Shown one piece after another: positions 1-16,382 of a DNA stretch of 18,931 nucleotides. The translations under genes and the position numbers were made by a program. The DNA comes from a virus, in the IMG/VR virus record IMGVR_UViG_3300045988_031999, positions 1-18,931 of that record; one strand, written 5' to 3'. Under the pieces are notes generated by a model. The model was not told where the DNA came from. It ran no database searches and saw only the letters and a list, made by a program, of their open reading frames with translations. Each line of letters opens with the position of its first letter. Position 1 is the stretch's first letter.

Positions 1-30
1 TTTTACGCCTGTCTGTCAACTTTTTTTATT

Positions 31-68
31 TTGGGCGTGTTGTTTGTTTTTGGGCGTGTCGTTTGTTT
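31..68 (+). repeat. Tandem 19-bp direct repeat x2 inside ITR-L (ttgggcgtgtYgtttgttt)
   Basis: 31-49 ttgggcgtgttgtttgttt and 50-68 ttgggcgtgtcgtttgttt are directly abutting with 1 mismatch. Each contains (gttt)n. Confidence 0.9.
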
Positions 69-73
69 GTTTG

Positions 74-82
74 TGTTATAGT
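74..82 (+). promoter_or_regulatory. Extended -10-like element TGtTATAGT in ITR-L, reading inward
   Basis: TG at 74-75 and TATAGT at 77-82, about 34 nt upstream of the ATG at 116. An SD-like aagggaaaggaaa lies at 98-110. No good -35 is present. Confidence 0.5.
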
Positions 83-115
83 GTAGTTATCCGTTTCAAG
101 GGAAAGGAAAATAAA

Positions 116-346
116 ATGAACACTATTATTGCAATCGATTGGGCACGCGATTGGGTTGTGGTTTCTTTTACTGATATTGAGAATGTTTATACATTCAGTC
201 TTGGTGAAGTCACTACCTTGAGTGGTGCAAAAACCCGTATTCGTCATATACTGCTCAAGCAGTATGGTATTACGCTTTCTCGTATGAGGTTTGAGAAGTC
301 TACTAATGCTATTGACTATTACCGTTCTAGCCGTGTTGGTTGGTGA
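116..346 (+). CDS. Hypothetical early protein, 76 aa (left terminal gene)
   Basis: The ATG at 116 is preceded by an SD-like gggaaagg. It is the internal Met of track ORF 44..346. The upstream 24 codons lie in the ITR, start with TTG and have no SD. The stop is followed within 3 nt by the next gene's GGAGG. Confidence 0.65.
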   Translation: MNTIIAIDWARDWVVVSFTDIENVYTFSLGEVTTLSGAKTRIRHILLKQYGITLSRMRFEKSTNAIDYYRSSRVGW

Positions 347-361
347 TTGGAGGTAAATGAG

Positions 362-739
362 ATGAATATTGTTGGTGTTGATGTTCATACCGATAAAGAA
401 TTACCGGCTGAGTTGGTTGCTATTAGAGGTGATGAGGGTTGGACTTCGTTGATTTTTGCTGACAATATTACCGGTTTTGGTATGTGGCAGCAGACCGGTG
501 ATGATACTTGGTATTTTGATACTTTGGTAGGTGGTGATTACGATTTGTATCATGACCTTGACGCTGAGCGGGTTACGGGTATCTGCGGTGCTGTTTGTGG
601 CCTTGACTGGGAGGTTTCTGCTAATGATTATCTTGCTGAATATGGGGTTAAGCTTGGTCGATTTGACACGGCTAAGGGCGATAGATATAAGTTGGTCGAG
701 CTTGGAGAGCATGACATGCGGGAGGGTTTCCGCATATGA
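362..739 (+). CDS. Hypothetical strongly acidic early protein, 125 aa
   Basis: GGAGG at 349-353, then the ATG at 362 (internal Met of track ORF 347..739). Hand count gives about 25 D+E versus about 10 K+R. Confidence 0.75.
   Translation: MNIVGVDVHTDKELPAELVAIRGDEGWTSLIFADNITGFGMWQQTGDDTWYFDTLVGGDYDLYHDLDAERVTGICGAVCGLDWEVSANDYLAEYGVKLGRFDTAKGDRYKLVELGEHDMREGFRI
663..691 (+). promoter_or_regulatory. Near-consensus promoter TTGACA-N17-TATAAG
   Basis: ttgaca at 663-668, a 17-nt spacer, then tataag at 686-691. It lies in the 3' end of CDS 362..739, upstream of the gene at 810. Confidence 0.4.
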
Positions 740-809
740 ATGCCAGTATTGCAAAGTTGCGTCAGATAGTTCGTGTTATCAATATGAATGTTGATTAGGG
801 AGGTTTATC

Positions 810-1037
810 ATGTGGTATTTTATTATTACTGCCGATGGTTTTCAGGTTTTTAAGGTTTTTCCTGATTGTGTGAAGCCGAGTGGGAAGTTTTATGCTCCTA
901 CGCTTAAGTCTGCACTTGATGGTGTTTTGTCTCATATTCGTGGTGCCTATGTCGAGCATGTGAGCGTGGATATCGATAACGCCACGTTCGATATTGATGG
1001 CGTCATGGTTGGTATGGTTCGAGTGTCTTTGGCCTGA
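810..1037 (+). CDS. Hypothetical early protein, 75 aa
   Basis: Strong SD tagggagg, then 7 nt, then ATG. Tightly packed with its neighbours. Confidence 0.75.
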   Translation: MWYFIITADGFQVFKVFPDCVKPSGKFYAPTLKSALDGVLSHIRGAYVEHVSVDIDNATFDIDGVMVGMVRVSLA

Positions 1038-1050
1038 TTGGAGTGGTATT

Positions 1051-1281
1051 ATGGAATGGCATTATTTTACCGTCATTGATGAGTTTACGGGGTTGAGCTG
1101 TAGTTTTCGCTGGCGTGAAGCGATCTGCGATTACTGTGGGGTTGACTACCGATTCCAATTGTATTGCGGATTCTGCGGTAAGTATGACCCTATCATGGAT
1201 TTTGTTGATTTGGATAGTGGTTTTGAGTACTGTCGTAATTTTGATTTCAGGCATTTTTATAGGGATTTTCATGTATTCTGA
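1051..1281 (+). CDS. Hypothetical small Cys-rich protein, 76 aa, putative zinc ribbon (CxxC-x9-CxxC)
   Basis: The ATG at 1051 follows ttggag. It is the internal Met of track ORF 994..1281. Contains the motif CDYCGVDYRFQLYCGFCG. Confidence 0.6.
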   Translation: MEWHYFTVIDEFTGLSCSFRWREAICDYCGVDYRFQLYCGFCGKYDPIMDFVDLDSGFEYCRNFDFRHFYRDFHVF

Positions 1282-1287
1282 GGTGTT

Positions 1288-1458
1288 ATGATGATCTATA
1301 TGAGTATTGTTGTCGTTCTGTTTGCGATTCTCATGATTGCCGCGAGTGCTGAAGCGTTTCGTGAAGCGCCGCGTGATATGCGTGACGTAATGTGTTTTTT
1401 GGTCATGCTTGTTGTGAGTGTGGCTATTGTGTTGGTTTTTGTTGTGAAAGGTTTCTGA
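1288..1458 (+). CDS. Small two-pass membrane peptide, 56 aa (below the ORF-track cutoff)
   Basis: Hand translation: MMIYMSIVVVLFAILMIAASAEAFREAPRDMRDVMCFLVMLVVSVAIVLVFVVKGF. Two hydrophobic stretches flank a charged loop. SD-like gaggtg lies at 1280-1285. It exactly fills the gap between neighbouring genes. Confidence 0.6.
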   Translation: MMIYMSIVVVLFAILMIAASAEAFREAPRDMRDVMCFLVMLVVSVAIVLVFVVKGF

Positions 1459-1459
1459 A

Positions 1460-1708
1460 ATGTGTATGAATGATATGAACGTTGCCGTGTTTGCGTCTCC
1501 GTTTGTGGGCGGTGGTGTACGTTTGTGGTATTGTCCTCACGGCCATCGTTATGAATTGCGGTATGCTGTCCAGTTTCGCACGCCGAGTGGCGGGGTGTGT
1601 AATGCGTCGGCCTTGTGTGCGTATGATGCTGGGGACGGATCTCAAGTTGTTGACCTTATGCTTGATGCTATTGACATTGCCAACACCCCATTGCTGGATA
1701 GGGATTAG
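1460..1708 (+). CDS. Hypothetical early protein, 82 aa
   Basis: ORF-track frame with a globular-looking sequence. It ends 2 nt before the next start. The alternative frame 1482..1766 is Leu/Cys-rich and looks like an off-frame artefact. Confidence 0.6.
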   Translation: MCMNDMNVAVFASPFVGGGVRLWYCPHGHRYELRYAVQFRTPSGGVCNASALCAYDAGDGSQVVDLMLDAIDIANTPLLDRD

Positions 1709-1710
1709 TC

Positions 1711-1899
1711 ATGTATGTTCGTGGTTGGTTGCATTCTTGGACTTGCGGTGGTTGTGTTTATGCTGACTCGTATTGGCGTCTTCGTGCGTTTTGGGCGGGT
1801 GTAAAACATAAGTCGGGTATGCCGAAACGGTGTCCTGACCTGCAACTGTGGCATGACATGTGGAGTCTTGGAAACGAGTCCGAAGAATTGGAGTTTTAA
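1711..1899 (+). CDS. Hypothetical Trp/Cys-rich early protein, 62 aa
   Basis: SD-like taggga precedes the ATG at 1711. The stop at 1897-1899 overlaps the region around the next gene's SD. Confidence 0.5.
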   Translation: MYVRGWLHSWTCGGCVYADSYWRLRAFWAGVKHKSGMPKRCPDLQLWHDMWSLGNESEELEF

Positions 1900-1901
1900 T
1901 C

Positions 1902-2078
1902 ATGTATGAAACTTTTGTCGCACTGGCGTATCTGAGATATAGTGATAAACCACCTATTGAAGTAGGCTACGCCACCTCTTACGATAAAGCCGCCGAGTTG
2001 GTGCGCAAGTGGGCGGCAGTGCCTTCACATACGAAGAATGTCGCATATTTCAAAGTAGAAAGAAGGTACTATGTTTAA
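1902..2078 (+). CDS. Hypothetical early protein, 58 aa
   Basis: tggag at 1889-1893, then 8 nt, then the ATG at 1902 (internal Met of track ORF 1860..2078). Confidence 0.6.
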   Translation: MYETFVALAYLRYSDKPPIEVGYATSYDKAAELVRKWAAVPSHTKNVAYFKVERRYYV

Positions 2079-2589
2079 CCGTGGCAATGATCGCACGCCA
2101 ATCTATCGACTGCGCCGGTTTGATGATGCGATCATGGAGTCGCCACGTATTGTCAAGGCCACGCAGGGTCATACCCGTGAATTGAATCTCATTCGTTACG
2201 ACATGGGCTATGGTGATTTTGAAACGTGTTGTCGTGCGGTCAATATGCTGTGCGAACTGTGGCGTGAAGCGCCTAGCGCGTGGTTTACGCAAGCGGTGGT
2301 CACGGTGTCTCAGATTTGCGGAAGCATGTGCATTGGTGATGGACTCGCCGCCGCTTTGTCCCGCACGTATGACGTGGAATATTTGGATGGTTCAGTGAAT
2401 CCGCCTAACCTGATTGCATGGTGCGCAGTGTGCGCGGTCAAGGGTGCCACATCGTACGACTGTTGTACTATTTTCGATAGCCCGCAGGCGCAAAACCTTA
2501 TTATTGCCGTGTTTAAAAATTTTGACAGACTGGACACGACACGATATAATGATAGCGAGTTGGAAAAAATCTTACTGCAAGGGAGGTAA
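2071..2589 (+). CDS. Hypothetical Cys-rich protein, 172 aa
   Basis: SD-like agaagg precedes the ATG at 2071. It overlaps the previous gene by 8 nt. I recognise no family. Confidence 0.75.
   Translation: MFNRGNDRTPIYRLRRFDDAIMESPRIVKATQGHTRELNLIRYDMGYGDFETCCRAVNMLCELWREAPSAWFTQAVVTVSQICGSMCIGDGLAAALSRTYDVEYLDGSVNPPNLIAWCAVCAVKGATSYDCCTIFDSPQAQNLIIAVFKNFDRLDTTRYNDSELEKILLQGR
2522..2550 (+). promoter_or_regulatory. Perfect consensus sigma-A/sigma-70 promoter TTGACA-N17-TATAAT
   Basis: ttgaca at 2522-2527, a spacer at 2528-2544 (17 nt), then tataat at 2545-2550. It lies inside the 3' end of CDS 2071..2589, about 43 nt upstream of the start at 2593. Confidence 0.7.
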
Positions 2590-2592
2590 AAA

Positions 2593-2910
2593 TTGGCTAG
2601 AACCAAAACCGATATTTTCCGCACGCGCGTGTATGCCGTGCTTAAGGGCATGGAGCTTGTTGACGGTGATTTTATGGAAGCCGAGCATGTTATCGACGGA
2701 CGGTTGAAGGACGCCCGCGCGTATTCGATTCGTGCAAAGAAACTGTTCCCTAATTTCATCCCACGCTCTATCAATATTTTTTCGCAAAAGGTTTCCATGA
2801 ATGAGGAAACTTTTTACAAGTATGCGACTTTTGAGCAACCGCAGGAATGGAACCCCGAAGAACATACAAACAAACGACACGCCGACATTGAAAATAATGA
2901 CGGCATGTGA
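2593..2910 (+). CDS. Putative phi29 p6-like histone-like dsDNA-binding protein, 105 aa
   Basis: A TTG start follows GGGAGG plus 7 nt. Size (105 versus 104 aa), position immediately upstream of the SSB, an acidic C-terminal tail, and a loose by-eye pattern match to phi29 p6 (T.V...K...VDG ... F...AT) support the call. Confidence 0.5.
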   Translation: MARTKTDIFRTRVYAVLKGMELVDGDFMEAEHVIDGRLKDARAYSIRAKKLFPNFIPRSINIFSQKVSMNEETFYKYATFEQPQEWNPEEHTNKRHADIENNDGM

Positions 2911-2916
2911 TATAAA
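2908..2916 (+). promoter_or_regulatory. Extended -10-like element TGaTATAAA
   Basis: TG at 2908-2909 and TATAAA at 2911-2916. It overlaps the stop of CDS 2593..2910, 58 nt upstream of the SSB start. Confidence 0.4.
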
Positions 2917-2973
2917 AGATTTTAGGCATAAGCCTGAAAATAAAAACAACAATAATAAGGGAAGGTAAATATC

Positions 2974-3411
2974 ATGGAAAACACCAACACCGCACTCGTG
3001 GCATTCAACACCGAATCCACCGAACTCGGCACAGTCCAGCACTTCATCGACACCTCCACCCGTGAGGGCAAAATCAAGCTCTACTCGGCATTGCAGAACG
3101 CCGAAAAGCTCGACGAACACCTTAACGAAACCTTGAATATGGTGAATGCCGTCGCGCAGGCTGTACAGGTGACGGACGATCAGACGGGAGAAGTATCCAA
3201 CACCGTGCGTGTCATTATTGTGACCGACGATAACAAGGCGTATGCGGCCACCTCCCCCACGTTGGCTGCAGGATTGAACACCATGTTTGGGATCTTCGGA
3301 ACCCCGAACACTTGGGAAGCACCATTGGCAATCAAGGTGGTGGAACGTCGTTCCCGTCGCGGTTTCAAGTTTTTCAGCATTGAGCCGGTGGACGAGAAGG
3401 AAACCAAGTGA
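2974..3411 (+). CDS. phi29 p5-like single-stranded DNA-binding protein, 145 aa
   Basis: SD aagggaagg. N-terminus is MENTN..., then GKIKLYSA, AVAQAVQVTD, and a C-terminal IKVVERRSRRGFKFFSIEP. These match the pattern I recall for phi29 p5 (MENTNIVKATF..GQIKIFNA..AIAQYKQVSD..KVKVVQGTSSKGNVFFSLQL). It lies upstream of TP and pol. Confidence 0.75.
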   Translation: MENTNTALVAFNTESTELGTVQHFIDTSTREGKIKLYSALQNAEKLDEHLNETLNMVNAVAQAVQVTDDQTGEVSNTVRVIIVTDDNKAYAATSPTLAAGLNTMFGIFGTPNTWEAPLAIKVVERRSRRGFKFFSIEPVDEKETK

Positions 3412-3414
3412 GCT

Positions 3415-3423
3415 TGCTATAAT
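3415..3423 (+). promoter_or_regulatory. Extended -10 promoter element TGcTATAAT
   Basis: TG at 3415-3416 and TATAAT at 3418-3423, 4 nt after the SSB stop and 70 nt upstream of the TP start. Confidence 0.55.
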
Positions 3424-3445
3424 AACTGAGTAACGTTCGTTCATA

Positions 3446-3470
3446 GAGAGCACCCACTTTGGGTGCTCTC
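3446..3470 (+). promoter_or_regulatory. Perfect 10-bp stem-loop in the TP leader (no U-tract)
   Basis: gagagcaccc at 3446-3455 pairs with gggtgctctc at 3461-3470, with loop acttt. It is followed by gccatctt, so it is not a classic intrinsic terminator. It lies between the TGcTATAAT and the SD (aagga at 3479-3483). Confidence 0.6.
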
Positions 3471-3492
3471 GCCATCTTAAGGACTGTGCCAT

Positions 3493-4452
3493 ATGTCTCG
3501 GAAGCAAAAGCATGTCAAGGCACGTCAGGCCGCGCAAGCTCGTGCCGCCCGCAATATCAAACAGCTCGGCAGTTACTCTCACTCGAATCTCGCTAAAACC
3601 GCAGATCAACAATTAGTCAATATCGCGAAAACCTTGGGTAAAGAGTGGGAGCGGCAGAAGAAACAGGCCATAGCGGAAGCGAAAGCAACCCCCTACCATG
3701 CCAGTGCCGCGGAAAAGCCGACGAAAAAAGACTACATGTTTGCCCAGCGCACGCCAATCACGAACGCGCAAATCGACGCGGAACCCGTAGCGAAACGTCG
3801 TAAACTGCTCAGGCAACAGCAACGGAAAATCAATGCGGCACGTCGGAAGATCAACGAATGGAACAAAGAGCAAGCCAAACCGCAACGCAGCGTATACGAT
3901 CAGCGCGTGGCCGAACTTGAAGGCACTACCGGCGAAGGCTTCGGGCGCACCCAGATCATCCCGTCGAAACTCACGGACTTCCTGCAAATGACGAACGTAC
4001 TGTCAGATGAAGCGTTCGTGCGCAGTCAATTGGAGAGTGGACACCGGAATGAACTACGGGAACAGATGCATGACGTGGCAGAAATATTGGGCTTGCGTAC
4101 CGAGCAGAAACTTAAAACCTCCAAAAAACGGAAGACGGATACTCGCCCCGACTTGTATGATGATCATAATTGGCCGTCTTACATGTCACGCGGGCGATAT
4201 GAAGTGTTCGAGAAGATCTTGGCTACCACGCTCGGATCGAAAAGATTGAAGCGGTTCCGTCAATTGTCAGCCGCGCAAAAGCGCGCGTTCATCGAACAGA
4301 CGGACGCGCCGCGCATCGTGTTCGATTGGACGGTGTATGACCCCGTTCGACACGGTTTCACTTCAGTGTTCCGAGATAACAGCGAGGGGTATCAGCGTTC
4401 GCGCAGGCAGTTTGACCGGTGGGTGTCGGAAGCGGGCGCACTGGAAAAGTAG
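3493..4452 (+). CDS. Putative terminal protein (protein primer), 319 aa
   Basis: Immediately upstream of the family-B polymerase, as in phi29 (gene 3 then gene 2). Very basic, K/R/Q-rich N-terminal half. No recognisable sequence identity to phi29 TP by eye, so the call rests on position and composition. Confidence 0.55.
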   Translation: MSRKQKHVKARQAAQARAARNIKQLGSYSHSNLAKTADQQLVNIAKTLGKEWERQKKQAIAEAKATPYHASAAEKPTKKDYMFAQRTPITNAQIDAEPVAKRRKLLRQQQRKINAARRKINEWNKEQAKPQRSVYDQRVAELEGTTGEGFGRTQIIPSKLTDFLQMTNVLSDEAFVRSQLESGHRNELREQMHDVAEILGLRTEQKLKTSKKRKTDTRPDLYDDHNWPSYMSRGRYEVFEKILATTLGSKRLKRFRQLSAAQKRAFIEQTDAPRIVFDWTVYDPVRHGFTSVFRDNSEGYQRSRRQFDRWVSEAGALEK

Positions 4453-4479
4453 CTGTGGTCAATCAAGGGAAGGTATACT

Positions 4480-5931
4480 ATGACAGTGCAAGACAAAAGA
4501 GTGGGATTATGGTGTGTGGATAACGTTATACGCTTTACGGACGGCACTGTCTTGCGCGGCGTTGCCGCCCCTAATCGTCTGTTGGCGTCCATCATGTCGG
4601 GCGGAAAACTCACCGTCTACGTGACTGACCCCGAAATGCTTGACCCTTTTGTCGCGCACGTCGTACATGCATTGCCCCACAATGAGCATAATGCTGACTT
4701 GAGCTGGGATGCGATAGTGTCGAAAAAGGGCAAATTCTTCAGCTTCACCGTACGGATTGACCGTGAGAACTCGGCGCGCTTTTTCGATATATCGAATCTT
4801 TTACGCGAGAATTGCAGGCTCACCATGACTGACACGCAACTGCTCTCAATACTTAGAGAGTATGACCTGCGCGGCTTGTGTAAGATTACGGCAGGCGGTG
4901 CGAGCATGGAAGCGTTCGCGTCCGGCGAGTGGAAATGGTATTACGACAAATTCCCACAATTAGAATCCGGTGACAAAAAGTCATTGCATGACGCCTATAT
5001 CGGCGGATTCATGCTAGCCAACGAAGGCATGTACAGCAAGGCTATCGACGTTGACTGCAACTCAATGTATCCGTCCATACTACGAGATGAATGGCTCCCG
5101 TGGGGACTACCTGAACAGTATGAAGGCAAATACGAACAGGACAGCGACATGCCACTGCATTGCGACGAGCTCACGTTTCGCGCGGAACTCAAACCAAACG
5201 GCTACCCCTTTTTGCTTGACAATCGCAGTGTCTATGGGCTGAATCGACTCACCTCAACCCGTGGCTATATCACGCGCGTACTGACTGACATTGACCAAGA
5301 ACTGCTCTACGAAAACTATAACGTCACCATATACAAGCACGTTCGCGGCTGGAAGTTCCGCCGCTCCAAAGGATTCTTCAGGTCATTCATCGATGAATGG
5401 GGAGGACTGAAACAGAAGGCGACGGGTGAGAAACGGCAGATGGCGAAACTGATCATGAACGCGCTCGTAGGCAAAATGGCTAGCCTACCAAAAGGATCCG
5501 TCATGCTCCCCACCTCCAACGATGGCATAACCTTGGACTGGGACGTGGCGCACCGTGAGGAATCGAATTTGAAAACCGATTTTCTCCCCGTGCCCGTATG
5601 GGTGAATGCTTATGCACGTCGCAAGCTCATGACCGTCTGCCACGCGAACGCGGGTAGAGTGTTGTATGCCAATACGGACGGTTGCATCCTATCCGGTTGG
5701 GATCCCGTGCGATCATGCGAGATCCATCCGACTGAACTGGGTAAGTGGAAGATCGCCGCCAAATACGAAAAGCTTACGATATTAGGCATGAACCGGTATC
5801 AAGGATGGAGAGAGGACGGGGGGGTTGACGTATGCATGGCGGGCAACATGTTTGCGAAACCTATCCCCTACGAGCAGTTCCGGCATGGGATGCAGGTCAT
5901 GGATGACTACGGAACGATGGTCATGCTATAA
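4480..5931 (+). CDS. Protein-primed family-B DNA polymerase (phi29 gp2-like), 483 aa
   Basis: ITAGGASMEAF, YIGGF, DVDCNSMYPS (motif A), LPWGLPEQYEGKY..MPLHC, FRSFIDEWG, KLIMNALVGKMAS (motif B), YANTDG (motif C) and ELGKWK align by eye with phi29 MTAGSDSLKGF, YRGGF, DVNSLYP, LPYGEPIVFEGKY..YPLHI, FKDFIDKW, KLMLNSLYGKFAS, YCDTDS and KLGYW. TPR1- and TPR2-length insertions are present. Confidence 0.93.
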   Translation: MTVQDKRVGLWCVDNVIRFTDGTVLRGVAAPNRLLASIMSGGKLTVYVTDPEMLDPFVAHVVHALPHNEHNADLSWDAIVSKKGKFFSFTVRIDRENSARFFDISNLLRENCRLTMTDTQLLSILREYDLRGLCKITAGGASMEAFASGEWKWYYDKFPQLESGDKKSLHDAYIGGFMLANEGMYSKAIDVDCNSMYPSILRDEWLPWGLPEQYEGKYEQDSDMPLHCDELTFRAELKPNGYPFLLDNRSVYGLNRLTSTRGYITRVLTDIDQELLYENYNVTIYKHVRGWKFRRSKGFFRSFIDEWGGLKQKATGEKRQMAKLIMNALVGKMASLPKGSVMLPTSNDGITLDWDVAHREESNLKTDFLPVPVWVNAYARRKLMTVCHANAGRVLYANTDGCILSGWDPVRSCEIHPTELGKWKIAAKYEKLTILGMNRYQGWREDGGVDVCMAGNMFAKPIPYEQFRHGMQVMDDYGTMVML

Positions 5932-5932
5932 T
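5924..5932 (+). promoter_or_regulatory. Extended -10 promoter element TGcTATAAT overlapping the polymerase stop codon
   Basis: TG at 5924-5925 and TATAAT at 5927-5932. The predicted start is around 5938-5940. No CDS with an SD follows for 230 nt. Confidence 0.55.
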
Positions 5933-5937
5933 ACTTG

Positions 5938-6109
5938 TGTCTTCTGAGCGTCGATTTTCGACTGGGAACAACATGTGTCGGACTGCCACGGCTGAGAATG
6001 CCGCCGACCCGTGAATATCACTATCGTGGCGGTAGTGCCCTACGATTGTCAACTCGCGCTCACATAAGACAGTCTAGACCCCGCGTGATTGCGGGGTCAT
6101 TTATTTTTT
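5938..6109 (+). ncRNA. Candidate ~170-nt structured RNA, possibly a pRNA-like packaging RNA
   Basis: Bounded by the TGcTATAAT promoter and an intrinsic terminator. A long-range helix pairs 5938-5943 with 6066-6071 and 5945-5950 with 6057-6062 (12 Watson-Crick pairs, 1x3 internal loop). This helix closes a ~106-nt core with hairpins at 5950-5962, 5972-6013 and 6019-6046. There is no SD or plausible ORF. Confidence 0.45.
6077..6109 (+). terminator. Rho-independent terminator
   Basis: gaccccgc at 6077-6084 pairs with gcggggtc at 6091-6098, with loop gtgatt, followed by atttatttttt. Confidence 0.85.
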
Positions 6110-6118
6110 CCCGTCGCA

Positions 6119-6127
6119 TGATATAAT
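6119..6127 (+). promoter_or_regulatory. Extended -10 promoter element TGaTATAAT (candidate late promoter)
   Basis: TG at 6119-6120 and TATAAT at 6122-6127. It lies directly after the terminator T-tract and 38 nt upstream of the scaffold start. Confidence 0.6.
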
Positions 6128-6164
6128 TTTGATGGAAACATTACCAATATGAAGGGAGCTTTGC

Positions 6165-6452
6165 ATGGCAGACCCAAACAATGACGGTGAGGAAACCACT
6201 ACTCCGCCGCCGACCGAAGAGGAACAGCAGACCGAAACTGTGGACGATGAGGTCAAACCGAAAGAGGAGTCGGAACCGGAACCGAATCAGGAGCCGGACG
6301 TTTCCGCACGGCTCGACAGCATTGAAAAAGAATTGGCTACGTTGAAGGCCATGATGGACACGCTCGGCTACACCGAACCCGCACCGTCCGACAATGACGG
6401 TGATGGCGACAACGACGGTGATGGCGAGTCCATCGAAGACTTGTTCGACTAA
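6165..6452 (+). CDS. Putative scaffolding protein (phi29 gp7-like), 95 aa, very acidic
   Basis: SD aagggag. Immediately upstream of the capsid gene, of similar size to gp7 (98 aa). Has a helical central segment, and the C-terminal ESIEDLFD resembles the gp7 C-terminal ITIEDLEAK. Confidence 0.65.
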   Translation: MADPNNDGEETTTPPPTEEEQQTETVDDEVKPKEESEPEPNQEPDVSARLDSIEKELATLKAMMDTLGYTEPAPSDNDGDGDNDGDGESIEDLFD

Positions 6453-6469
6453 AAAGAAAGGTATAAGTA

Positions 6470-8185
6470 ATGTCCAATATTCGACCATTGGCCGGCAAGG
6501 GTGACGTTGAGATCTTCAACGCAGTCCGAAACGCCACCAGCCCCCAGTTCCAAACCCGAATTCCATCCGCCACGCAGGGCAACATTCGCAATGCCGTGGA
6601 CACCATGCGCAATTTCCCATACCTTCGTGACGAGTTTACGGGCGTACTGATCCAGCGTCTCATCGGGCTCTATATCCAGCACGCGGACTGGGATGATCCT
6701 TTGAAGCTCATCGGCTCCCCACGCACCTTGAAGCGCTACGGCTCCACCTATGAGCAGGCTGCGGTAGGTTTGGTCAAGGCACGCACCCGTAACTTCAACA
6801 AAGAGTACCTTGGGGATGACGTGTACGGGCGTTACTCGCTCCCAACCGCAAGCGTATTCCATCCGCTCACCTTCGATCATTACTATCCCGTCACCATCCC
6901 AGAAGACGCCTTGCTGACCGCATTCGATGGCGAAAGCGGCATGGCCGATTACATTGCGGAGATCATGAACGCGCCTATCCTGAGTGATAGGAACGACATG
7001 TATTTGATGAAGACGCAGTGTTTCGCAGAATACGCGCGTAAGGGCGGCTTCTATCGCATCCATACCCCCGACGTTGGCAAGGCCGACTCCACCGAAGCTG
7101 ACGCCAAGGGATTGTTGCGCCTTATCCAGCAGGTTGCCAACGAACTGAAGGCGTCCCCAATGTCGGCCATGCCACGCTATAACGCAATGAGCTGGGTTAC
7201 CCCGTGGCGCGATAGCGAAGCGATACTGTTCGCCACTCCGCAGGTGATCGCCGCGCTCAACGTGGAAGCATTGGCCGCCGCCTTCAACATCGATAAGGTC
7301 AATGTACCGTATCGTATCATTCCGATTCCTGAGGATATGTTCGGTATCGGTGGACAGGGTGGTAAGGTGCAGGCCGTCTTGACCACGGAAGACTTCTTCT
7401 TCTGCTGGGATGAAATGTTGGAGACCACCAATAGCCCCGTCAATCCTATCGACGGCACCCGCAACATCTTCTACAAGCACCGCGGAAGCATCACCCCTAA
7501 CCCGTTTGCGAACGCAGTGCTGTTCTGGACCGGCGAAGGCTCCACTGAGTCGGTGGTGCTGCCGGATACGCTCACCACTTCCACGCCGGTGTTCGAGCTG
7601 CGCGTCAAGAAGTACGGACAGAATGCCGTCACTCCTGAAAACGTGTCGCGTGGCGACTTGGTGCAAGTGGTGTCCACCATTACGAGCGCCAACAAGGATA
7701 AGGCAACCTTCCAGCCAAAGGGCATCAAATACGCAGTCGAAGGCGCAACCAGCCAGTTCACCACCATCGACAACGACGGTATCCTCCGTTGCGGTCTCGA
7801 CGAAACCGCCGAAACCCTCAAGGTCACCGCGCAGGCCACCTACATTAATCCGGCCACGCCAGAAATTGACCAGACGGTTTCCGACGCACTATCCGTGCCC
7901 GTGGTTGGTGAATGGCTTGGTGGTTGGAAGGCGGGAGCCATTGCGTCTCTTGAGATTCAGGGCGAAAAAACCGTCAAGGCCAACGAGCATATCACGCTCA
8001 AGGCGATCGCTACCAAGACGGACGGCAATAAGGCGGACGTAACCAATCTCGCCATGTGGTCTGTAGACCAGCACGCCACCATTGTCCCTAATGGCGTGTT
8101 GACCGGAACCGGCGCGGGATCCGCCAACGTCACCGTGAAGTTCGCGGGAGAAACGGGCATGACGCAGATCACCGTCAACGCCTGA
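6470..8185 (+). CDS. Major capsid protein (phi29 gp8-like) with C-terminal Ig-like (Big_2-type) domains, 571 aa
   Basis: The N-terminal IFNAVRNATSPQFQTRIPSATQGNIRNAV and DEFTGVLIQRLIGLYIQHADWDDPLK parallel phi29 gp8 [29 protein letters not shown] and [26 protein letters not shown]. The C-terminal ...HITLKAIATKTDGNKADVTNLAMWSVDQHATIVPNGVLTGTGAGSANVTVKF... is a typical Big_2 pattern. Confidence 0.92.
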   Translation: MSNIRPLAGKGDVEIFNAVRNATSPQFQTRIPSATQGNIRNAVDTMRNFPYLRDEFTGVLIQRLIGLYIQHADWDDPLKLIGSPRTLKRYGSTYEQAAVGLVKARTRNFNKEYLGDDVYGRYSLPTASVFHPLTFDHYYPVTIPEDALLTAFDGESGMADYIAEIMNAPILSDRNDMYLMKTQCFAEYARKGGFYRIHTPDVGKADSTEADAKGLLRLIQQVANELKASPMSAMPRYNAMSWVTPWRDSEAILFATPQVIAALNVEALAAAFNIDKVNVPYRIIPIPEDMFGIGGQGGKVQAVLTTEDFFFCWDEMLETTNSPVNPIDGTRNIFYKHRGSITPNPFANAVLFWTGEGSTESVVLPDTLTTSTPVFELRVKKYGQNAVTPENVSRGDLVQVVSTITSANKDKATFQPKGIKYAVEGATSQFTTIDNDGILRCGLDETAETLKVTAQATYINPATPEIDQTVSDALSVPVVGEWLGGWKAGAIASLEIQGEKTVKANEHITLKAIATKTDGNKADVTNLAMWSVDQHATIVPNGVLTGTGAGSANVTVKFAGETGMTQITVNA

Positions 8186-8205
8186 CATTAGATAATAGCC
8201 GGTAA

Positions 8206-8247
8206 AATAGGTGTGGATAGACTTGGTATCCACACCTATTATTTTTT
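8206..8247 (+). terminator. Strong rho-independent terminator after the capsid gene
   Basis: A perfect 14-bp stem: aataggtgtggata at 8206-8219 pairs with tatccacacctatt at 8227-8240. It has a 7-nt loop and is followed by attttttagg. Confidence 0.9.
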
Positions 8248-8259
8248 AGGAGGATTGTT

Positions 8260-10500
8260 ATGAGCGCTAATGACCTACCGATTAATTTTTCTTACGCAAA
8301 ATGGACGCCAAACACGAGATTCAAACTGTGTAACGTGCCGTGGGATATGGGCTATAGGGATATCGTCAAATGGGACAGACAGGCTCAACAAGAGTATTTC
8401 AGCCGGTTGGACGGTATCGAGTTCACGAACTGCACCATGTCAAAATATGGACTGCCCGTAAGATTGCCGGTGCCTTTCGCTCAGGCATGTCAGTATAATT
8501 ATCTGATCGCCACGAACGACTACGACTTTGATACCCCACGTAGTTGGTATTATTTCATTCAGACATGCGACTATATCAACGCCAACACCACGCAACTCAA
8601 CATTCAGTTGGACGTGTGGCAGAGCTTCCAGCATGACATTCAACTGGGCAACGCCTATGTGGAACGCGGCCATGTGGGCGTAGCCAACGAGAATGCGTGG
8701 AAAGACTGGGGCAAAACCTATTTGGATCTGCCAGAAGGACTCGACACCGGCAAATGCACCGTGCTTACGAATGAATCATGGAAGCCGCTCATGGATATTG
8801 GCGAACATGATGGGGTAAAATACACGTCCTATGGTCTGATCATCGTAAGCACCACCGATCTGGAAGCGGACACGGGCACGAAGGATAATCCGGTGGTCAA
8901 CACCGCCACCGGTAGCGCGTTCGAGAGTCAGCTTAACGGCACCAGCATGTATTATTTGGACACTCCAGCCGATATAGTCACATTCTTCTCCGAAGGCATG
9001 AACGCCCCGTGGGTCACGCAAGGCATTTGCGGCATTTATGCCGTGCCACATTTGCCGCAAGCCTTATTGGACGGTCAACCGAAAAAAACGGAACTCTTCG
9101 GACACTCGGTAGGTTTTATTGGCAATTGTTGGGAATTGCGCAAACGAAACGATAATAGCAACGCACGTTATACGGATATCATCAATCTCAAAAATTTCCG
9201 AGACACCTTTAGTCTACCGGAACGCTATAAGTATCTCAAGAAATTTTTGACCGCCCCTTATGCCTACATTGAATGCAGTTGCTTGAACGGCACTGTGATC
9301 ACGTATGAGCCTGAGCAGATCCCGAGCGCTGACTTGATTATCCGTGAATCATGGAATTACGCGCCGCCCTCCCCCCGACTCAACTTTTACGCACGCGGCT
9401 ACCATGCGGGAAACTTGGGCGAACGTCAACCATTGCCGGACGGCAAAGGACTCCCCATCGACACGGGTGAAATGCTCAACGCGTCCTTTGGCATCACGAA
9501 TTTCCCTACCTTCATGGCCGTCAACAACGGTTCGGCTCTCGCTCTCGCGAACAGTGCCTACACTCGCCAATACGCGCAACAATCCGCCGACTGGAGCTTT
9601 CAAAAAACCCAAATGGGCATCAATAATGCGTACGCTCAAGCGCAATTGGGCACCCAATACGCGAGTGCGCAGAACAGGCTCGGCACGTCGAACCGGAACG
9701 CCATGAACGCGATCAGCAACCAGAGCGCGCAAATGGGAACCGACCTCACGTTGAAGAATCTTGGATTCAATAACCAGATGGCACAGCTCAATACCATCGG
9801 TTCGGGTGTGGCGAACGCGGTAGGTTCAGCCGTCACCGGCAATATTGGCGGTGTGGCCGGTGCCATTGCTGGCACTGCGATAGGCGCATGGACGAACCAG
9901 CAAACCTACAATAACAACGTGTCAACCGCTAACCAGCAATTGGCGAACACGCAAACCACCAACAACGCTTCCACCTCACAGGCCAACGCTTTCTCCCTTG
10001 CACAAACCAATCTTTCCAATCAACAGACCATGCAGTTTGCCGATATGAACAAACAATTGGCGCAAGCCACCGCGCAGGGCGATTACGAAAACACGATCGC
10101 CGGTATCAACGCGCAGGTACAGCAGACCCAGACAGTGCCGCCCACCACGTCCGGCGCGCTGGGAGGTGACGCATTCAACCTAGCCAACGGACTGATTGGC
10201 GTCATGGTACGTTTCCGGCAGATACCGCCCGCCGCCATGCAAGCCATCGGAGAAGTGTGGCTGCGATACGGCTACTATGTCCAGCGCTTCATGAAATTGC
10301 CTGAAAATCTTATGGCCATGAGCAATTTCACCTACTGGAAACTGCATGAACTGTACGTGCGTTCGAGCACATGCCCCGAAGAATACCGATTGACGGTCAA
10401 AGGTATTTTCGAGTCTGGCGTGACCGTGTGGACTGACCCCGAGAAAATCGGAGTCACCGATTACGCTGACAATACGCCACTGGCCGGTATCGCATACTAG
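8260..10500 (+). CDS. Tail knob / distal tube protein (phi29 gp9-like), 746 aa
   Basis: SD aggagg. YLIATNDYDFDTPRSWYYFIQTCDYINANTTQLNIQLDVWQSF...YVERGHV parallels gp9 [43 protein letters not shown]...IVREHV. The C-terminal YGYYVQRF...GVTVWTD parallels YGYKINRV...GITLWHTD. It has a central Gly/Ala-rich hydrophobic segment. Confidence 0.88.
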   Translation: MSANDLPINFSYAKWTPNTRFKLCNVPWDMGYRDIVKWDRQAQQEYFSRLDGIEFTNCTMSKYGLPVRLPVPFAQACQYNYLIATNDYDFDTPRSWYYFIQTCDYINANTTQLNIQLDVWQSFQHDIQLGNAYVERGHVGVANENAWKDWGKTYLDLPEGLDTGKCTVLTNESWKPLMDIGEHDGVKYTSYGLIIVSTTDLEADTGTKDNPVVNTATGSAFESQLNGTSMYYLDTPADIVTFFSEGMNAPWVTQGICGIYAVPHLPQALLDGQPKKTELFGHSVGFIGNCWELRKRNDNSNARYTDIINLKNFRDTFSLPERYKYLKKFLTAPYAYIECSCLNGTVITYEPEQIPSADLIIRESWNYAPPSPRLNFYARGYHAGNLGERQPLPDGKGLPIDTGEMLNASFGITNFPTFMAVNNGSALALANSAYTRQYAQQSADWSFQKTQMGINNAYAQAQLGTQYASAQNRLGTSNRNAMNAISNQSAQMGTDLTLKNLGFNNQMAQLNTIGSGVANAVGSAVTGNIGGVAGAIAGTAIGAWTNQQTYNNNVSTANQQLANTQTTNNASTSQANAFSLAQTNLSNQQTMQFADMNKQLAQATAQGDYENTIAGINAQVQQTQTVPPTTSGALGGDAFNLANGLIGVMVRFRQIPPAAMQAIGEVWLRYGYYVQRFMKLPENLMAMSNFTYWKLHELYVRSSTCPEEYRLTVKGIFESGVTVWTDPEKIGVTDYADNTPLAGIAY

Positions 10501-10507
10501 ATATAAT

Positions 10508-10531
10508 GGAGAGAGTTGAAAAACTCTCTCC
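10508..10531 (+). terminator. 8-bp stem-loop after the tail knob gene (weak terminator or leader structure)
   Basis: ggagagag at 10508-10515 pairs with ctctctcc at 10524-10531, with loop ttgaaaaa. The downstream attactt is a poor U-tract. It is preceded by tataat at 10502-10507. Confidence 0.4.
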
Positions 10532-10554
10532 ATTACTTATATAGGACGGTGATT

Positions 10555-11493
10555 ATGGGTAAACGCAATAACGCGCGCAAAGCCGCGCACTGGGACAATC
10601 AGAGCGTGTTAGGCTCCATGTGGGGCAACCTGAATCTGCCTGAAATGCGGCAATCGCTCAGGATTAACCAATACATGAAATTGATTGAAATGCTGGCCGT
10701 AAGCCGGTTCAAATGGATCAACCTACCCCCATATATTGACGAACGCTATTTGGAACTCACCTTATTCGAGAATGGTCTAGCCCTCTTTTTCCCAGACAAA
10801 CGTAAGGGCGTCAACCGCTTCATGGTCACAGCGGGCAATATCGGTGGGGTGAACAACTACAATAATCCAACCTCGTTCCAGCCAGTCGCCACGAATTATT
10901 CGCACCCGCAGATCGGAAGCAAGGAATGCGTACCCATCTGGGACAATCAATTGCGTTGCACCATGATCGACGTCATGTGGAATTACGCCACACGACTCGC
11001 TATCGCAGACCGCGCGTTGGACGTCAACTTGGACAATATTTCAGTGCCGTTGATTATCGCCACGTCCGAAACCAACAAGCTCACCGCCCAAAACCTTATG
11101 AAGGCAAGGGAAGATGGCGACCCATACATTTACACGTACGACTCGGCGGACATTACCGGCATGTTCCAAACATTCCCGAACGTGACCCCGTTTTTGGCGG
11201 ATAAGATCATCACCACGAAAACGCAGATCTGGAACGAGCTTGTCAATTACCTTGGTATCGACAATTCAACCACCGAGAAGAAGGAAAGGTTGCTTGAAAG
11301 TGAGGTGACTGCGGGCAACAGTCGTACGAACGTGTTCCGATTGAGCTATTTGAAGGCGCGTCAACAGGCGTGCGATACGATTAACCGATTGTGGCCGCAA
11401 ATGGCCGACTCCGGATACCCCATCGGCATTGAATGGAACGACACCACAAGTGGTGGACTCTTGGACGTGGAAGGCAATAAGGAGGAAGAATAA
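10555..11493 (+). CDS. Portal / upper collar connector (phi29 gp10-like), 312 aa
   Basis: FKWINLPPYIDERYLELTLFENG, WNELVNYLGIDNSTTEKKERLLESEV and YLKARQQACDTINRLW parallel gp10 [49 protein letters not shown] and FLKSREEACEKINELY. The ATG at 10555 is preferred over the track's TTG at 10516, which lies inside the hairpin. Confidence 0.93.
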   Translation: MGKRNNARKAAHWDNQSVLGSMWGNLNLPEMRQSLRINQYMKLIEMLAVSRFKWINLPPYIDERYLELTLFENGLALFFPDKRKGVNRFMVTAGNIGGVNNYNNPTSFQPVATNYSHPQIGSKECVPIWDNQLRCTMIDVMWNYATRLAIADRALDVNLDNISVPLIIATSETNKLTAQNLMKAREDGDPYIYTYDSADITGMFQTFPNVTPFLADKIITTKTQIWNELVNYLGIDNSTTEKKERLLESEVTAGNSRTNVFRLSYLKARQQACDTINRLWPQMADSGYPIGIEWNDTTSGGLLDVEGNKEEE

Positions 11494-12305
11494 TGGTGCA
11501 GGACTTGAGCATGTATGCGGTCAAAGACAGTATGGCAGACTACACCTTGACTTTGGGTAATCTGATAGACCGTGGATATGATACGGACGAAAAACTACAT
11601 TTGAGCGCTCAATATTATCCGATTTTCGACGAAACGTATAGGGCGAAATTGAACGAAAAAATCGTAGCCCACTACGCACTACGTGAAATCGGTTCGGAAA
11701 CCCCGCAAATGTTCGTATTCTATCTGGGGCGCACCATGCGGGAGCAAATGGACTATTATAATCAGCTCTATTTGTCGGCACAGCGTAAGTTCGACCCCTT
11801 CATCACCTCAGATATTCGGCAGACTATGGATTCGACCAGTACGAATGAGTCTTCGGGAAAATCTTCGGGCACGCAGTCGAACGAGTCCACCGCACATAGC
11901 ACGTCCGACACTACCGCAGACAATTCCAGCATGACGTTTAACAGCGAGTTCCCGCAGACCCGTATTGACGATTTTAAAAAGTTCGCGACAAGCGCGTCAC
12001 AGACGGACTCACTAGGCAATACGCATACGGCAACCCAGCAGGATAGTACGGCCACCGCAACCAGCACCAGCAACACCGACTACGCGCACTCATCCGATAA
12101 AGGCAACAGCACGTCGCATACGCTCGGTACCAGCGGTTCGCAATCCCAGTTATTGCTTGATTGGCGTAATACCATGCTGAACATTGACATGATGGTTATT
12201 GGTTCGTTGGAAGATCTGTTTTTGGGGCTGTGGGGCAGTGGCGACAACATGACCAACGTACCGCAATTGTACAGTACGTCACTCGCTTATAATCTCGGTC
12301 ATTAG
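11493..12305 (+). CDS. Putative lower collar protein, 270 aa, with a long Ser/Thr-rich central segment
   Basis: TAATG overlap with the portal stop, with SD aaggagg. Position and size match phi29 gene 11 (293 aa). By-eye similarity to gp11 is not evident, so the call is mainly syntenic. Confidence 0.5.
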   Translation: MVQDLSMYAVKDSMADYTLTLGNLIDRGYDTDEKLHLSAQYYPIFDETYRAKLNEKIVAHYALREIGSETPQMFVFYLGRTMREQMDYYNQLYLSAQRKFDPFITSDIRQTMDSTSTNESSGKSSGTQSNESTAHSTSDTTADNSSMTFNSEFPQTRIDDFKKFATSASQTDSLGNTHTATQQDSTATATSTSNTDYAHSSDKGNSTSHTLGTSGSQSQLLLDWRNTMLNIDMMVIGSLEDLFLGLWGSGDNMTNVPQLYSTSLAYNLGH

Positions 12306-12337
12306 AGTATACTGGATTTGAGACAGATTGGAGGATT

Positions 12338-12937
12338 ATGGACGGATTTAACACATGCGCCGCGCCATTGGATATCGACCCACGGCAACGGTATTTCACC
12401 ACGGTTCAGCCGTTCTCGTACCGCGACACGCTCACCGTGTTGGGGTATGTGCAGGAAGTGGCTGGACACTTGGACGAGCTGCGCGAACAGTTGGACAATC
12501 TCGCCAAAGACGAAAACGCGGACGTTGAAGCCATCAAACAGTTGGTGGCCGGTTTCAATGAACAGTTCGACCGTATCAATAAAACCTTGGATGATCTTGA
12601 AAAGCAGGTTGGCCAGTATGAAGATTCGGACTTGACCTACAATCCGACTCGTGGTAAGTACGAAGATTCCAAGAACACGAACAGAGACATGTACCGCGAA
12701 CTTGCGGTGTTCGGTGCGCGTGTTAACCAGATGGCGCAACTCTCCGTGCCGATGGCTTCAGCGCATACGTGCCTTGAGATGGCCGTCTTGGGTAATAAAA
12801 CCATTTTCCATAACGACGAGCCGCGCATTACGCCGCGTGACGTGCATGTGGATGATGGGGAGCCGGTCACTGCGTTGACGGTGGAAAATCTCGCCAACGG
12901 TGTCGTGCAAAACAATTTCATGAAAACACATGAATAA
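12338..12937 (+). CDS. Hypothetical structural protein with coiled-coil segment, 199 aa (first gene of the fibre cluster)
   Basis: SD ggagg, then 5 nt, then ATG. Predicted coiled coil at LDELREQLDNLAKDENADVEAIKQLVAGFNEQFDRINKTLDDLEKQV. The function is not recognised. Confidence 0.8.
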   Translation: MDGFNTCAAPLDIDPRQRYFTTVQPFSYRDTLTVLGYVQEVAGHLDELREQLDNLAKDENADVEAIKQLVAGFNEQFDRINKTLDDLEKQVGQYEDSDLTYNPTRGKYEDSKNTNRDMYRELAVFGARVNQMAQLSVPMASAHTCLEMAVLGNKTIFHNDEPRITPRDVHVDDGEPVTALTVENLANGVVQNNFMKTHE

Positions 12938-12959
12938 CCAACAATAAATAGGAGGAAAA

Positions 12960-13313
12960 ATGACTCAGAAGACAACTAATTATAATCTTGAAAAGTATGA
13001 CGCGACGGACGCGCCGAACCTTCAAGGCCAATACAACCGTTCGATGGACATTCTGGATACGACGTTGAAAACCCAGTCGGACAGAATCGATAACATTCCA
13101 ACACCGGAAGCCCTACCGGAAGGATTGAAAGCGTTCACCACCGCTCTCGGATTGAGCGCATCGAACGCCGGCGCACTCGGTACCGCCTTGAATCATTTCT
13201 TGAACCGAGTTCCAGCCACCGGTGGCGGACAGTACACCGTCAAGAACCTCACCGACACGAAGGTTACGGCGGAGGGCCTGCCGTTCGTATCCACCACCCC
13301 TTCGGGGAAGTGA
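12960..13313 (+). CDS. Short fibre-like protein with the shared N-terminal module, 117 aa
   Basis: SD aggagg. The N-terminus TNYNLEKYDATDAPNLQGQYNRSMDILDTTL is shared with the next two genes. Confidence 0.8.
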   Translation: MTQKTTNYNLEKYDATDAPNLQGQYNRSMDILDTTLKTQSDRIDNIPTPEALPEGLKAFTTALGLSASNAGALGTALNHFLNRVPATGGGQYTVKNLTDTKVTAEGLPFVSTTPSGK

Positions 13314-13319
13314 TAGAAC

Positions 13320-13502
13320 ATGGCAGATAACCCGCAAGCAACCCCCGTTGACGTGGCCGCATATGACGTGACCCGTCATTGGGGGTTGCCCCTCTACAAT
13401 GACGCGACCCCAATGGACATGCGAGACGGATACAATCATGCCATGCGCATGATAGACCAGATCCTCACCCAACTGCAGACTCAGATTCGAGAAAAGGACT
13501 GA
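13320..13502 (+). CDS. 60-aa protein consisting only of the shared fibre N-terminal module
   Basis: RHWGLPLYNDATPMDMRDGYNHAMRMIDQIL compares with DNYGLNLYGDNDPADLRDGYNNSMRTIDTTM in the 500-aa fibre. It is tightly packed, with a 6-nt gap before it and a 4-nt gap after it. Confidence 0.65.
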   Translation: MADNPQATPVDVAAYDVTRHWGLPLYNDATPMDMRDGYNHAMRMIDQILTQLQTQIREKD

Positions 13503-13506
13503 AACA

Positions 13507-15009: not shown

Positions 15010-15028
15010 TGTGATGATGATTTAGGAT

Positions 15029-15068
15029 AATAGCCATAACGTATAATTACGTTATGGCTATTACTTTT
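15029..15068 (+). terminator. Perfect 15-bp hairpin plus short T-run; its right arm contains the next gene's start codon
   Basis: aatagccataacgta at 15029-15043 pairs with tacgttatggctatt at 15048-15062, with loop taat, followed by acttttac. The ATG at 15054-15056 lies inside the right arm. Confidence 0.6.
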
Positions 15069-16265: not shown

Positions 16266-16269
16266 TGTG

Positions 16270-16369: not shown

Positions 16370-16382
16370 GGGAGGTGAGCAT

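Follow-up and report, generated by a model that had tools for sequence, protein, structure and literature searches.

A gene for a structured RNA resembling the packaging RNA of phi29 in a phi29-like phage of an actinobacterial host

The window analysed here, that is, the whole stretch of 18,931 bp (IMG/VR record IMGVR_UViG_3300045988_031999, positions 1 to 18,931), is the complete linear genome of a small phi29-like Bifidobacterium phage, bounded by perfect inverted terminal repeats of 119 bp at 1-119 and 18813-18931. In this genome, a gap at 5932-6164 separates the gene of the type-B DNA polymerase (4480-5931) from a 95-aa open reading frame (ORF; 6165-6452), the scaffold gene. The gap appears to hold an independent gene for a structured RNA of approximately 170 nt, the probable counterpart of the prohead (packaging) RNA, or pRNA, of phage phi29, a reading to which a probability of roughly 70% can be given. 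It is close to certain that the region is a real, selected, and strand-specific RNA gene, and its reading as a packaging RNA is based on the pRNA architecture and the geometry of a loop-loop "handshake", the presence of the partner genes, the position at the end of an operon, and the recurrence of such RNAs at the same locus in unrelated sequences. An earlier note on this DNA, made from the letters alone, had proposed a pRNA-like RNA at this point, and the proposal is supported here, in that the corrected fold agrees element by element with the consensus of the Rfam pRNA family, RF00044.

Transcription unit and fold of the RNA

The relatives used for comparison were obtained from DNA-pattern and capsid-based scans of IMG/VR, plus a phage collection, which provided approximately 100 loci, all from a single human-gut clade. 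The covariance model built from these relatives (R1) matches 98 loci exactly once each, over its full length and always in the same place, and the final alignment contains 88 distinct sequences. The transcription unit and the promoter that follows it are arranged as follows:

5903-5932, + strand: promoter P1, with a -35-like ATGACT (5903-5908), an 18-nt spacer, and the extended -10 TGcTATAAT (5924-5932)
5939-6106, + strand: predicted primary transcript of approximately 168 nt, formed by domain I (5938-6071), the linker GUCUA (6072-6076), and then the terminator hairpin
6077-6109, + strand: intrinsic terminator, a hairpin at 6077-6098 (9 bp, 7 of them G-C) followed by the U tract AUUUAUUUUUU
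6119-6127, + strand: second extended -10, TGaTATAAT, outside the RNA

Promoter P1 overlaps the final codons and the stop codon of the polymerase gene, and ranks second among the promoter-like sites of the genome (10 of 12 matches), being the only one of them with the TG. This upstream TG, together with TATAAT or TATGAT, is kept in 51 of 51 relatives (alignment A2), and the outermost helix of the RNA, A1, begins 5-7 nt past the -10 in all relatives; transcription would start at about 5939. The hairpin and U tract at the other end constitute the best terminator-like site of the window, and the stem has undergone compensatory changes (C-G in 32 sequences with U-A in 13, and G-C in 32 with C-G in 15). 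The bracketing of the gap by this extended -10 and this terminator, as read originally, is thus borne out, as both signals are present and both are conserved in the relatives. The second extended -10, 10 nt past the U tract of the terminator, is almost invariant in the 51 relatives, and is presumed to drive the scaffold-capsid (late) operon.

The placement of the RNA exactly between the polymerase operon and the scaffold-capsid operon, its ending in the strongest terminator of the genome, and the second conserved promoter that follows it might also fit an RNA with a regulatory role, or else a structured 3' end, at the early/late boundary, which would either terminate or stabilise the replication transcript, or act as a small RNA or attenuator in the timing of the late genes. 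Such a role is unlikely, however, given that a terminator or stabiliser needs no 134-nt three-way-junction domain with covarying loop-loop complementarity, and that the RNA has a conserved promoter of its own, placed so that transcription begins at the base of the closing helix. The recurrence of the pRNA layout in three phage clades with unrelated sequences, and the agreement of this layout with RF00044, also count against a regulatory RNA or 3' end.

The segment 5936-6112 folds in RNAfold at -65 kcal/mol (z = -3.0), with the closing helix proposed in the earlier note recovered within the minimum-energy fold. Taken as a single sequence, the reverse strand has a fold of much the same quality (z = -3.08), and the strand was therefore settled by comparison with the relatives, in which 94.5% of the cells are paired on the + strand versus 85.9% on the reverse strand, a gap accounted for by 341 G-U cells. 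Over the 88 sequences, standard pairs occupy 91.7% of the cells, as against 31-53% when the partners are slid by 1-3 columns, and 32 of the 48 pairs show changes on both sides. The observed pairing values were reached in 0 of 500 shuffles, alignments made with MAFFT only gave the same outcome as the R1-based alignment, and RNAalifold recovered the fold from 51 sequences with 14 compensatory pairs. The fold is not due to chance. The region is also under selection at the nucleotide level, with a conservation of 0.826, which is similar to that of the flanking genes (0.80-0.83), and far above that of their third codon positions (0.59-0.69).

It is very improbable, by contrast, that no RNA gene exists here, and that the region either encodes a 63-aa protein or is a DNA-level signal for replication or packaging. 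A TTG-initiated ORF of this length (5935-6126) is present in the mechanical list, and the similar folding of the single reverse strand would also be compatible with a non-RNA function. This ORF was considered as a gene and rejected, given that its start codon is found in only about 15 of 84 relatives, early stops occur in approximately half of the relatives, and changes in length of -1 or -2 are frequent. The strand difference in paired cells likewise counts against a non-RNA function, as do the promoter and terminator, which are both directed along the + strand. The searches for known RNAs recovered no tRNA or tmRNA (ARAGORN) and no Rfam family at gathering score in the whole genome.

The elements of domain I are, in order from the closing helix inward:

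5938-5943, + strand: 5' strand of helix A1, paired with 6066-6071
5944: C opposite CAU 6063-6065, an internal loop
5945-5951, + strand: 5' strand of helix A2, paired with 6056-6062
6051-6055: variable bulge AACUC, opposite C5952
5953-5960 with 6043-6050: inner A helix, with central U·U mismatches that form a U-rich internal loop
5961-5963: ACU opposite UA 6041-6042, an internal loop
5964-5966: GGG, paired with CCC 6038-6040
5967-5971, + strand: junction linker AACAA, from A to C
5972-5975 with 6010-6013, and 5977-5981 with 6004-6008, + strand: C helix
5982-5988, + strand: CE bulge ACUGCCA, 7 nt, on the 5' side only
5985-5988, + strand: GCCA, the last four nt of the CE bulge, proposed kissing partner of UGGC 6027-6030
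5989-5992 with 6000-6003, + strand: E helix, 4 bp
5993-5999, + strand: E loop UGAGAAU
6014-6018, + strand: junction linker AAUAU, from C to D
6019-6037, + strand: D hairpin, with a 7-bp helix (6019-6025/6031-6037) and the loop GUGGC (6026-6030)
6038-6071, + strand: 3' strand of helix A (CCC 6038-6040, UA, 6043-6050, AACUC, 6056-6062, CAU, 6066-6071), into which helix D runs directly, with 0 nt between them

The closing helix had been drawn originally as 5938-5943/6066-6071 plus 5945-5950/6057-6062, with compensatory substitutions in relatives suggested as the test. Such substitutions are found in five of the six A1 pairs and four of the seven A2 pairs (G5950-C6057, for example, is G-C in 74 sequences and A-U in 12), and helix A2 extends one pair further, to 5951/6056, although its outermost pair, U5945-A6062, is unpaired in 49 of the 88 sequences. 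Further inward, A5954-U6049 becomes G-C in three sequences, C5959-G6044 becomes U-A in three, and both U5958-A6045 and G5965-C6039 are exchanged in one divergent relative, L251, for C-G and A-U, respectively. At the centre of the inner A helix, the U·U mismatches turn into pairs in L384 and L251.

The most divergent members of the clade also decided the shape of this part of the molecule. A local hairpin at 5950-5962, modelled as 5952-5960, was first kept in R1 on the basis of one compensatory change in L256, and was ruled out when L251, L323, L384, and L356 were seen to pair over the long range, 5953-5960 with 6043-6050; the domain therefore has one long A helix. Of the three hairpins envisaged for the core in the earlier note, then, the arm at 5972-6013 stands, the one at 5950-5962 is instead a strand of helix A, and the third comprises 6019-6037 rather than 6019-6046, with CCC 6038-6040 lying outside it and pairing with GGG 5964-5966.

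The 3x3 U-rich internal loop (5955-5957/6046-6048) is mostly U·U in the clade, and fully paired in the divergent members. The segments beside it, UUCGACUGGGA and GUGCCCUACGA, are almost invariant, and 6046-6055 varies in both sequence and length. The region of this loop is a candidate binding site for a protein, possibly the packaging ATPase.

Covariation also supports the 7-nt bulge and the pairs of the C-E arm, much as they had been read by eye. Changes on both sides are found in seven of the nine pairs of the C helix and in all seven of the D helix, in which 100% of the cells are paired, and the E helix is paired in 99.7%. The E loop occurs in two principal forms, UGAGAAU (57 sequences) and UGAAAAC (22), the intermediate UGAGAAC being present in only two, so that G5996 and U5999 change together. 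This linked change may reflect a tertiary or protein contact, or recombination.

The complementarity of GCCA (5985-5988) and UGGC (6027-6030), offered initially as a possible kissing pair, proved to be covarying and specific to its register. In register, 97.6% of the cells are paired, versus no more than 75% in shifted registers, and at the pair 5985-6030 the 88 sequences divide into 71 with G-C, 10 with G-U, and 7 with A-U, A·C being absent. The A-U state is found in otherwise divergent sequences (BD811P2, L256, L307/L309, L251, L323, and L356). The terminal pair, A5988-U6027, is lost in eight sequences. Position 6030 could alternatively close the D helix by pairing with G6026 (G-C 67, G-U 12, A-U 2, A·C 2), and this arrangement has mismatches, whereas the loop-loop pairing has none at this position.

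Likeness to the packaging RNA of the phi29 family

The reference pRNA was the RF00044 consensus printed from its match to phage PZA, the positive control (144.7 bits, with a gathering threshold of 100 bits), and the names of the helices and loops follow PMC5066667. Like the phi29 pRNA, the window RNA has a domain I, here of 134 nt, with its 5' and 3' ends paired in a long A helix, which includes approximately 24 paired positions in the window RNA and 22 bp in phi29/PZA, and has a 5' strand with an asymmetry of 3 nt in each case. The C helix has 4+5 bp with one bulged nucleotide in the window RNA and 5+4 bp in phi29/PZA, and is followed in both by a CE bulge confined to the 5' side and immediately preceding helix E, of 7 nt versus 9 nt. 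The E helix is of 4 bp in both, and the E loops, UGAGAAU in the window RNA and UUGAGU in phi29/PZA, have UGA in common. The D helix has 7 bp in the window RNA and 6 bp in phi29/PZA, with a D loop of 5 nt in both, and the linkers of the junction are of 5, 5, and 0 nt versus 1, 3, and 0 nt.

The likeness extends to the loop-loop pair, given that the bulge and the D loop of each RNA end in four nucleotides that are mutually complementary (GCCA/UGGC in the window RNA, AACC/GGUU in phi29). In the phi29 pRNA, 45-AACC-48 pairs with 82-GGUU-85. A 3' hairpin domain follows after a short linker in both cases, with the terminator of the window occupying the place of domain II of the phi29 pRNA.

Both RNAs, with a transcript of approximately 170 nt, belong to protein-primed podophages of approximately 19 kb which encode homologues of gp10 and gp16. 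The two systems differ in their G+C content (54% in the window, 41% in the phi29 family) and in their hosts, that of the window being an actinobacterium, whereas phi29, PZA, M2/Nf, B103, SF5, and GA-1 are Bacillus phages. The RNA gene is found at the distal end of the replication operon in the window phage, as it is in phi29 (PMC11476376), and the claim that it occupies the same relative position downstream of the replication genes is thus upheld. In the window, the replication operon and the late genes share one direction, and the RNA gene therefore lies in the middle of the genome, next to the scaffold gene. The PZA record (NC_001423.1; L399) shows a comparable arrangement, with the pRNA at 4883-5000 and the left early region co-directed with the late genes, so that the pRNA lies just before the scaffold gene. 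This orientation in PZA has been ascribed to an assembly artefact (PMC6266182).

A putative pRNA has also been described outside the Bacillus phages, in the Streptococcus phage Cp-1, with a host from the Bacillota, and is not known to be supported by covariation. A covariance model derived from the pRNAs of Bacillus phages could not identify the Cp-1 RNA reliably (PMC6266182).

The same locus in other phi29-like phages

The phi29-like phages from other Actinobacteria have a gap directly before the scaffold gene, of 155-195 nt. Unannotated pRNA-like RNAs supported by covariation occupy this place in the following phages:

Curtobacterium phage Ayka (L230), 4209-4325: pRNA-like RNA with a strong terminator, directly before the scaffold gene
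Arthrobacter phage Mendel (L229), 4934-5033: pRNA-like RNA with a strong terminator, directly before the scaffold gene

The Curtobacterium set consists of five distinct sequences, from phages that include Ayka, Prophecy, Pize, and Reje, and the Arthrobacter set of four (Mendel, Anjali, Swim, and Tillums). The Curtobacterium RNAs have a long A helix, a C helix with AUUGCAG as the 5' bulge, an E helix closed by the loop UUGAAA, a D hairpin that abuts A, and a strong terminator, with 94.7% of the cells paired, versus 34-48% when slid, and 15 compensatory pairs. Their CE bulge and D loop are complementary (UUGCA with UGCAA), and in Reje a U-A kissing pair has been replaced by C-G. The Arthrobacter RNAs have the same layout, with the bulge GCAGCU, the E loop UUGAAU, complementarity between AGCU in the CE bulge and AGCU in the D loop, and 11 compensatory pairs. 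Across the two sets, the E loops are UUGAAA, GUGAAG, CUGAUA, and UUGAAU, and those of Ayka and Mendel (UUGAAA and UUGAAU) resemble the UUGAGU of phi29. The RNAs of both sets share the locus, the layout, and the complementarity of bulge and D loop with the window RNA, but their sequences cannot be aligned with it, their C and D helices are shorter, and their kissing cores are palindromic (UGCA and AGCU), unlike the GCCA/UGGC of the window.

Similar gaps, of 155-162 nt, precede the scaffold gene in two other phages, and a structured RNA is found at the same locus in a phage of Bifidobacterium:

Glutamicibacter phage Voltaire (L403), 4769-4918: candidate locus, z = -3.2
'Rhizobium' phage RHph_N3_8 (L404), 5589-5738: candidate locus, z = -4.4
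Bifidobacterium phage BadAztec1 (L228), 12731-12856, minus strand: structured RNA, promoter-proximal

Voltaire and RHph_N3_8 each have a closing helix, two arms, and a terminator, in shapes that are similar by eye, with possible E loops of UUGAUU and GUGAAA, respectively, and no relatives for covariation. In BadAztec1, the sequence TGcTATAGT overlaps the stop codon of the polymerase, as in the window, and the closing helix, GUGAGCG/CGCUCAC, has the window's sequence. The closing helices of BadAztec1 and BadAargau2 are supported by two compensatory pairs, and their cores are 100% identical, and thus uninformative on the architecture.

Relatives of intermediate divergence were sought in IMG/VR with a capsid alignment and with divergent capsids, and these scans recovered only the same gut clade, at capsid identities of at least 82%. 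The BadAztec capsid query recovered two loci, and that of Ayka, one. In the protein search, all of the 120 matches listed had identities of at least 78%. A search of BadAztec1, Mendel, and Ayka with R1, filters off, found nothing significant.

A number of observations weigh against the packaging-RNA reading. The scan with the Rfam pRNA model, which had been recommended as a check, gave no match to RF00044 at gathering score in the whole genome, and none at E <= 10 over 5850-6200, where the sole sub-threshold match of any family was sucC, outside the RNA. With its filters off, R1 scored only 5.2 bits (E = 8.8) at the pRNA locus of PZA. Common descent therefore lacks support from the sequence, the homology being structural, and the window RNA falls outside RF00044 as that model stands. 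The Curtobacterium and Arthrobacter loci also gave no pRNA match in Rfam, either at gathering score or at E <= 10. The interior of helix A also differs, in that the window RNA has a U-rich loop, a 3'-side bulge of 5 nt, and an ACU/UA loop where phi29 has a CCA bulge. One kissing pair has turned into C·A in Tillums, contrary to strict covariation in the Arthrobacter set. A descriptor of the shared architecture, which asks for a C helix, a 5' bulge, an E hairpin whose loop contains UGA, a D hairpin, and no fewer than four Watson-Crick pairs between the bulge and the D loop, has a single match in PZA, which is the true pRNA, and a single match in the window genome, at 5977-6037, versus 0.05 in shuffled genomes, and was composed after the examples had been seen, which makes this result a corroboration rather than an independent test. 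The same descriptor picks up a single additional match in Mendel and another in Ayka, and misses the candidate loci in BadAztec1, Voltaire, and RHph_N3_8. The sequence is, in addition, compatible with pairing of the loops within one molecule and between two, and the arguments for expression, binding to the prohead, and packaging are all drawn from sequence.

Given that GCCA and UGGC could pair inside a single molecule, and that sequence homology to the pRNA is undetectable, the RNA might be a compact molecule with an intramolecular pseudoknot and some other task, for example as an anti-defence RNA, as a host-factor decoy, or in binding RNA polymerase or the ribosome, with a likeness to the pRNA that is convergent. 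This appears slightly less likely even than the regulatory role considered above, because the likeness takes in every element and its size, down to the placement of the four pairing nucleotides within the bulge and within the loop, and the UGA motif of the E loop is common to the window RNA and phi29. The RNA is, moreover, found only beside the morphogenesis genes of phages which encode gp16 and gp10. A counterpart of the phi29 packaging RNA is thus the preferred reading.

Partner genes, proposed mechanism, and significance

The genes of the window that bear on this reading are:

4480-5931, + strand: type-B DNA polymerase (Pfam)
6165-6452, + strand: 95-aa ORF, the scaffold gene, preceding the phi29-type capsid gene, with the ribosome-binding site GGGAG at 6155-6159 and ATG at 6165
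6470-8185: phi29-type major capsid protein (Pfam)
8260-10500: tail knob (Pfam)
10516-11493, + strand: ORF of the connector, phi29 gp10 family (PF05352, 1.8e-39), or 10555-11493 if the start is M14
16368-17450, + strand: DNA-encapsidation ATPase, phi29 gp16 family (PF05894, 3.1e-45; profile positions 6-319 of 331)

The Pfam search also gave a match to PF25622 (1.1e-57), and PHROGs adds a single-strand DNA-binding protein (SSB), a lower collar, and an endolysin. The genome is of the protein-primed, phi29-like type, as its 119-bp inverted terminal repeats would lead one to expect; the terminal repeat of phi29 is far shorter, at 6 bp (PMC11476376). The clear homologues of gp16 and gp10 reported in the earlier note are borne out by these Pfam scores, and both are full length. 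The connector and the gp16-type ATPase are the presumed protein partners of the RNA. The connector ORF, as listed mechanically, begins at a TTG 13 codons upstream of an ATG, and the choice of start codon is putative. If M14 is taken as the start, the connector's N-terminus is basic, MGKRNNARKAAH. In phi29, the basic N-terminus of gp10 binds RNA, and the N-terminus of the window connector may do so by analogy.

The nearest relatives in the databases are the Bifidobacterium phages BP1 and BD811P1-3, together with a human faecal contig, with 71-81% DNA identity over the query region, and the gap between polymerase and scaffold is without an annotated feature in all of these records. Elsewhere in the window, the genes of the SSB, the putative terminal protein, and the polymerase are preceded by the only perfect sigma-70 consensus of the genome (TTGACA, 17 nt, TATAAT), at 2522-2550, which probably serves as early promoter. 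A 14-bp terminator-like hairpin at 8206-8240, directly 3' of the capsid gene, overlaps a promoter-like site at 8214-8242.

In the mechanism proposed for the packaging RNA, the host RNA polymerase would start at about 5939 from the extended -10 at 5924-5932, and stop at the terminator at 6077-6109. Domain I (5938-6071) would then fold, with the long A helix leading into a three-way junction that bears the C-E arm and the D hairpin. By analogy with phi29, the GCCA of the CE bulge of one molecule would pair with the UGGC of the D loop of the next, and this intermolecular pairing would close a ring of RNA at the prohead's portal vertex. Contacts with the connector and the capsid may be made by the conserved E loop and the region of the junction, and the A helices would point outward and dock the gp16 ATPase, which would pump the genome, capped by the terminal protein, into the head.

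Reviews published in 2016 and 2024 consider the pRNA to be unique to phi29 and related Bacillus phages, and debate its origin, either as a relic of an RNA world or as a late replacement of a lost terminase domain (PMC5066667, PMC11476376). No report of a pRNA in a phi29-like phage from Bifidobacterium or any other actinobacterium was found in the literature, and the papers on BP1 and on Ayka make no mention of such an RNA.

The counterpart proposed here, supported by covariation and unrelated in sequence, is found in phages of another bacterial phylum. The chances are roughly even that the packaging RNA is an ancestral and general part of the phi29-type motor, which survives in actinobacterial phages as a family that the current covariance models miss. 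This interpretation covers the phages of Bifidobacterium, Curtobacterium, and Arthrobacter, and probably also those of Glutamicibacter and the 'Rhizobium' phage RHph_N3_8, and the family would retain the fold, the loop-loop handshake, and an E loop of the form N-U-G-A-N-N.

If this is true, the RNA would be older than the split of these phage lineages, and a set of G+C-rich natural pRNA rings would be available for study. The proposed counterpart would in itself open the question of the origin of the pRNA to comparative testing, and would reveal the features that are truly constrained, namely, the stacking of D on A, the E loop, and the handshake geometry. It would explain how gp16-type ATPases in such phages might dock on the portal, and would also provide new G+C-rich three-way-junction scaffolds for RNA nanotechnology. 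The annotation of gut Bifidobacterium phages, such as BD811P1-3 and BP1, which record only protein-coding genes here, would in this case overlook a gene that is probably essential.

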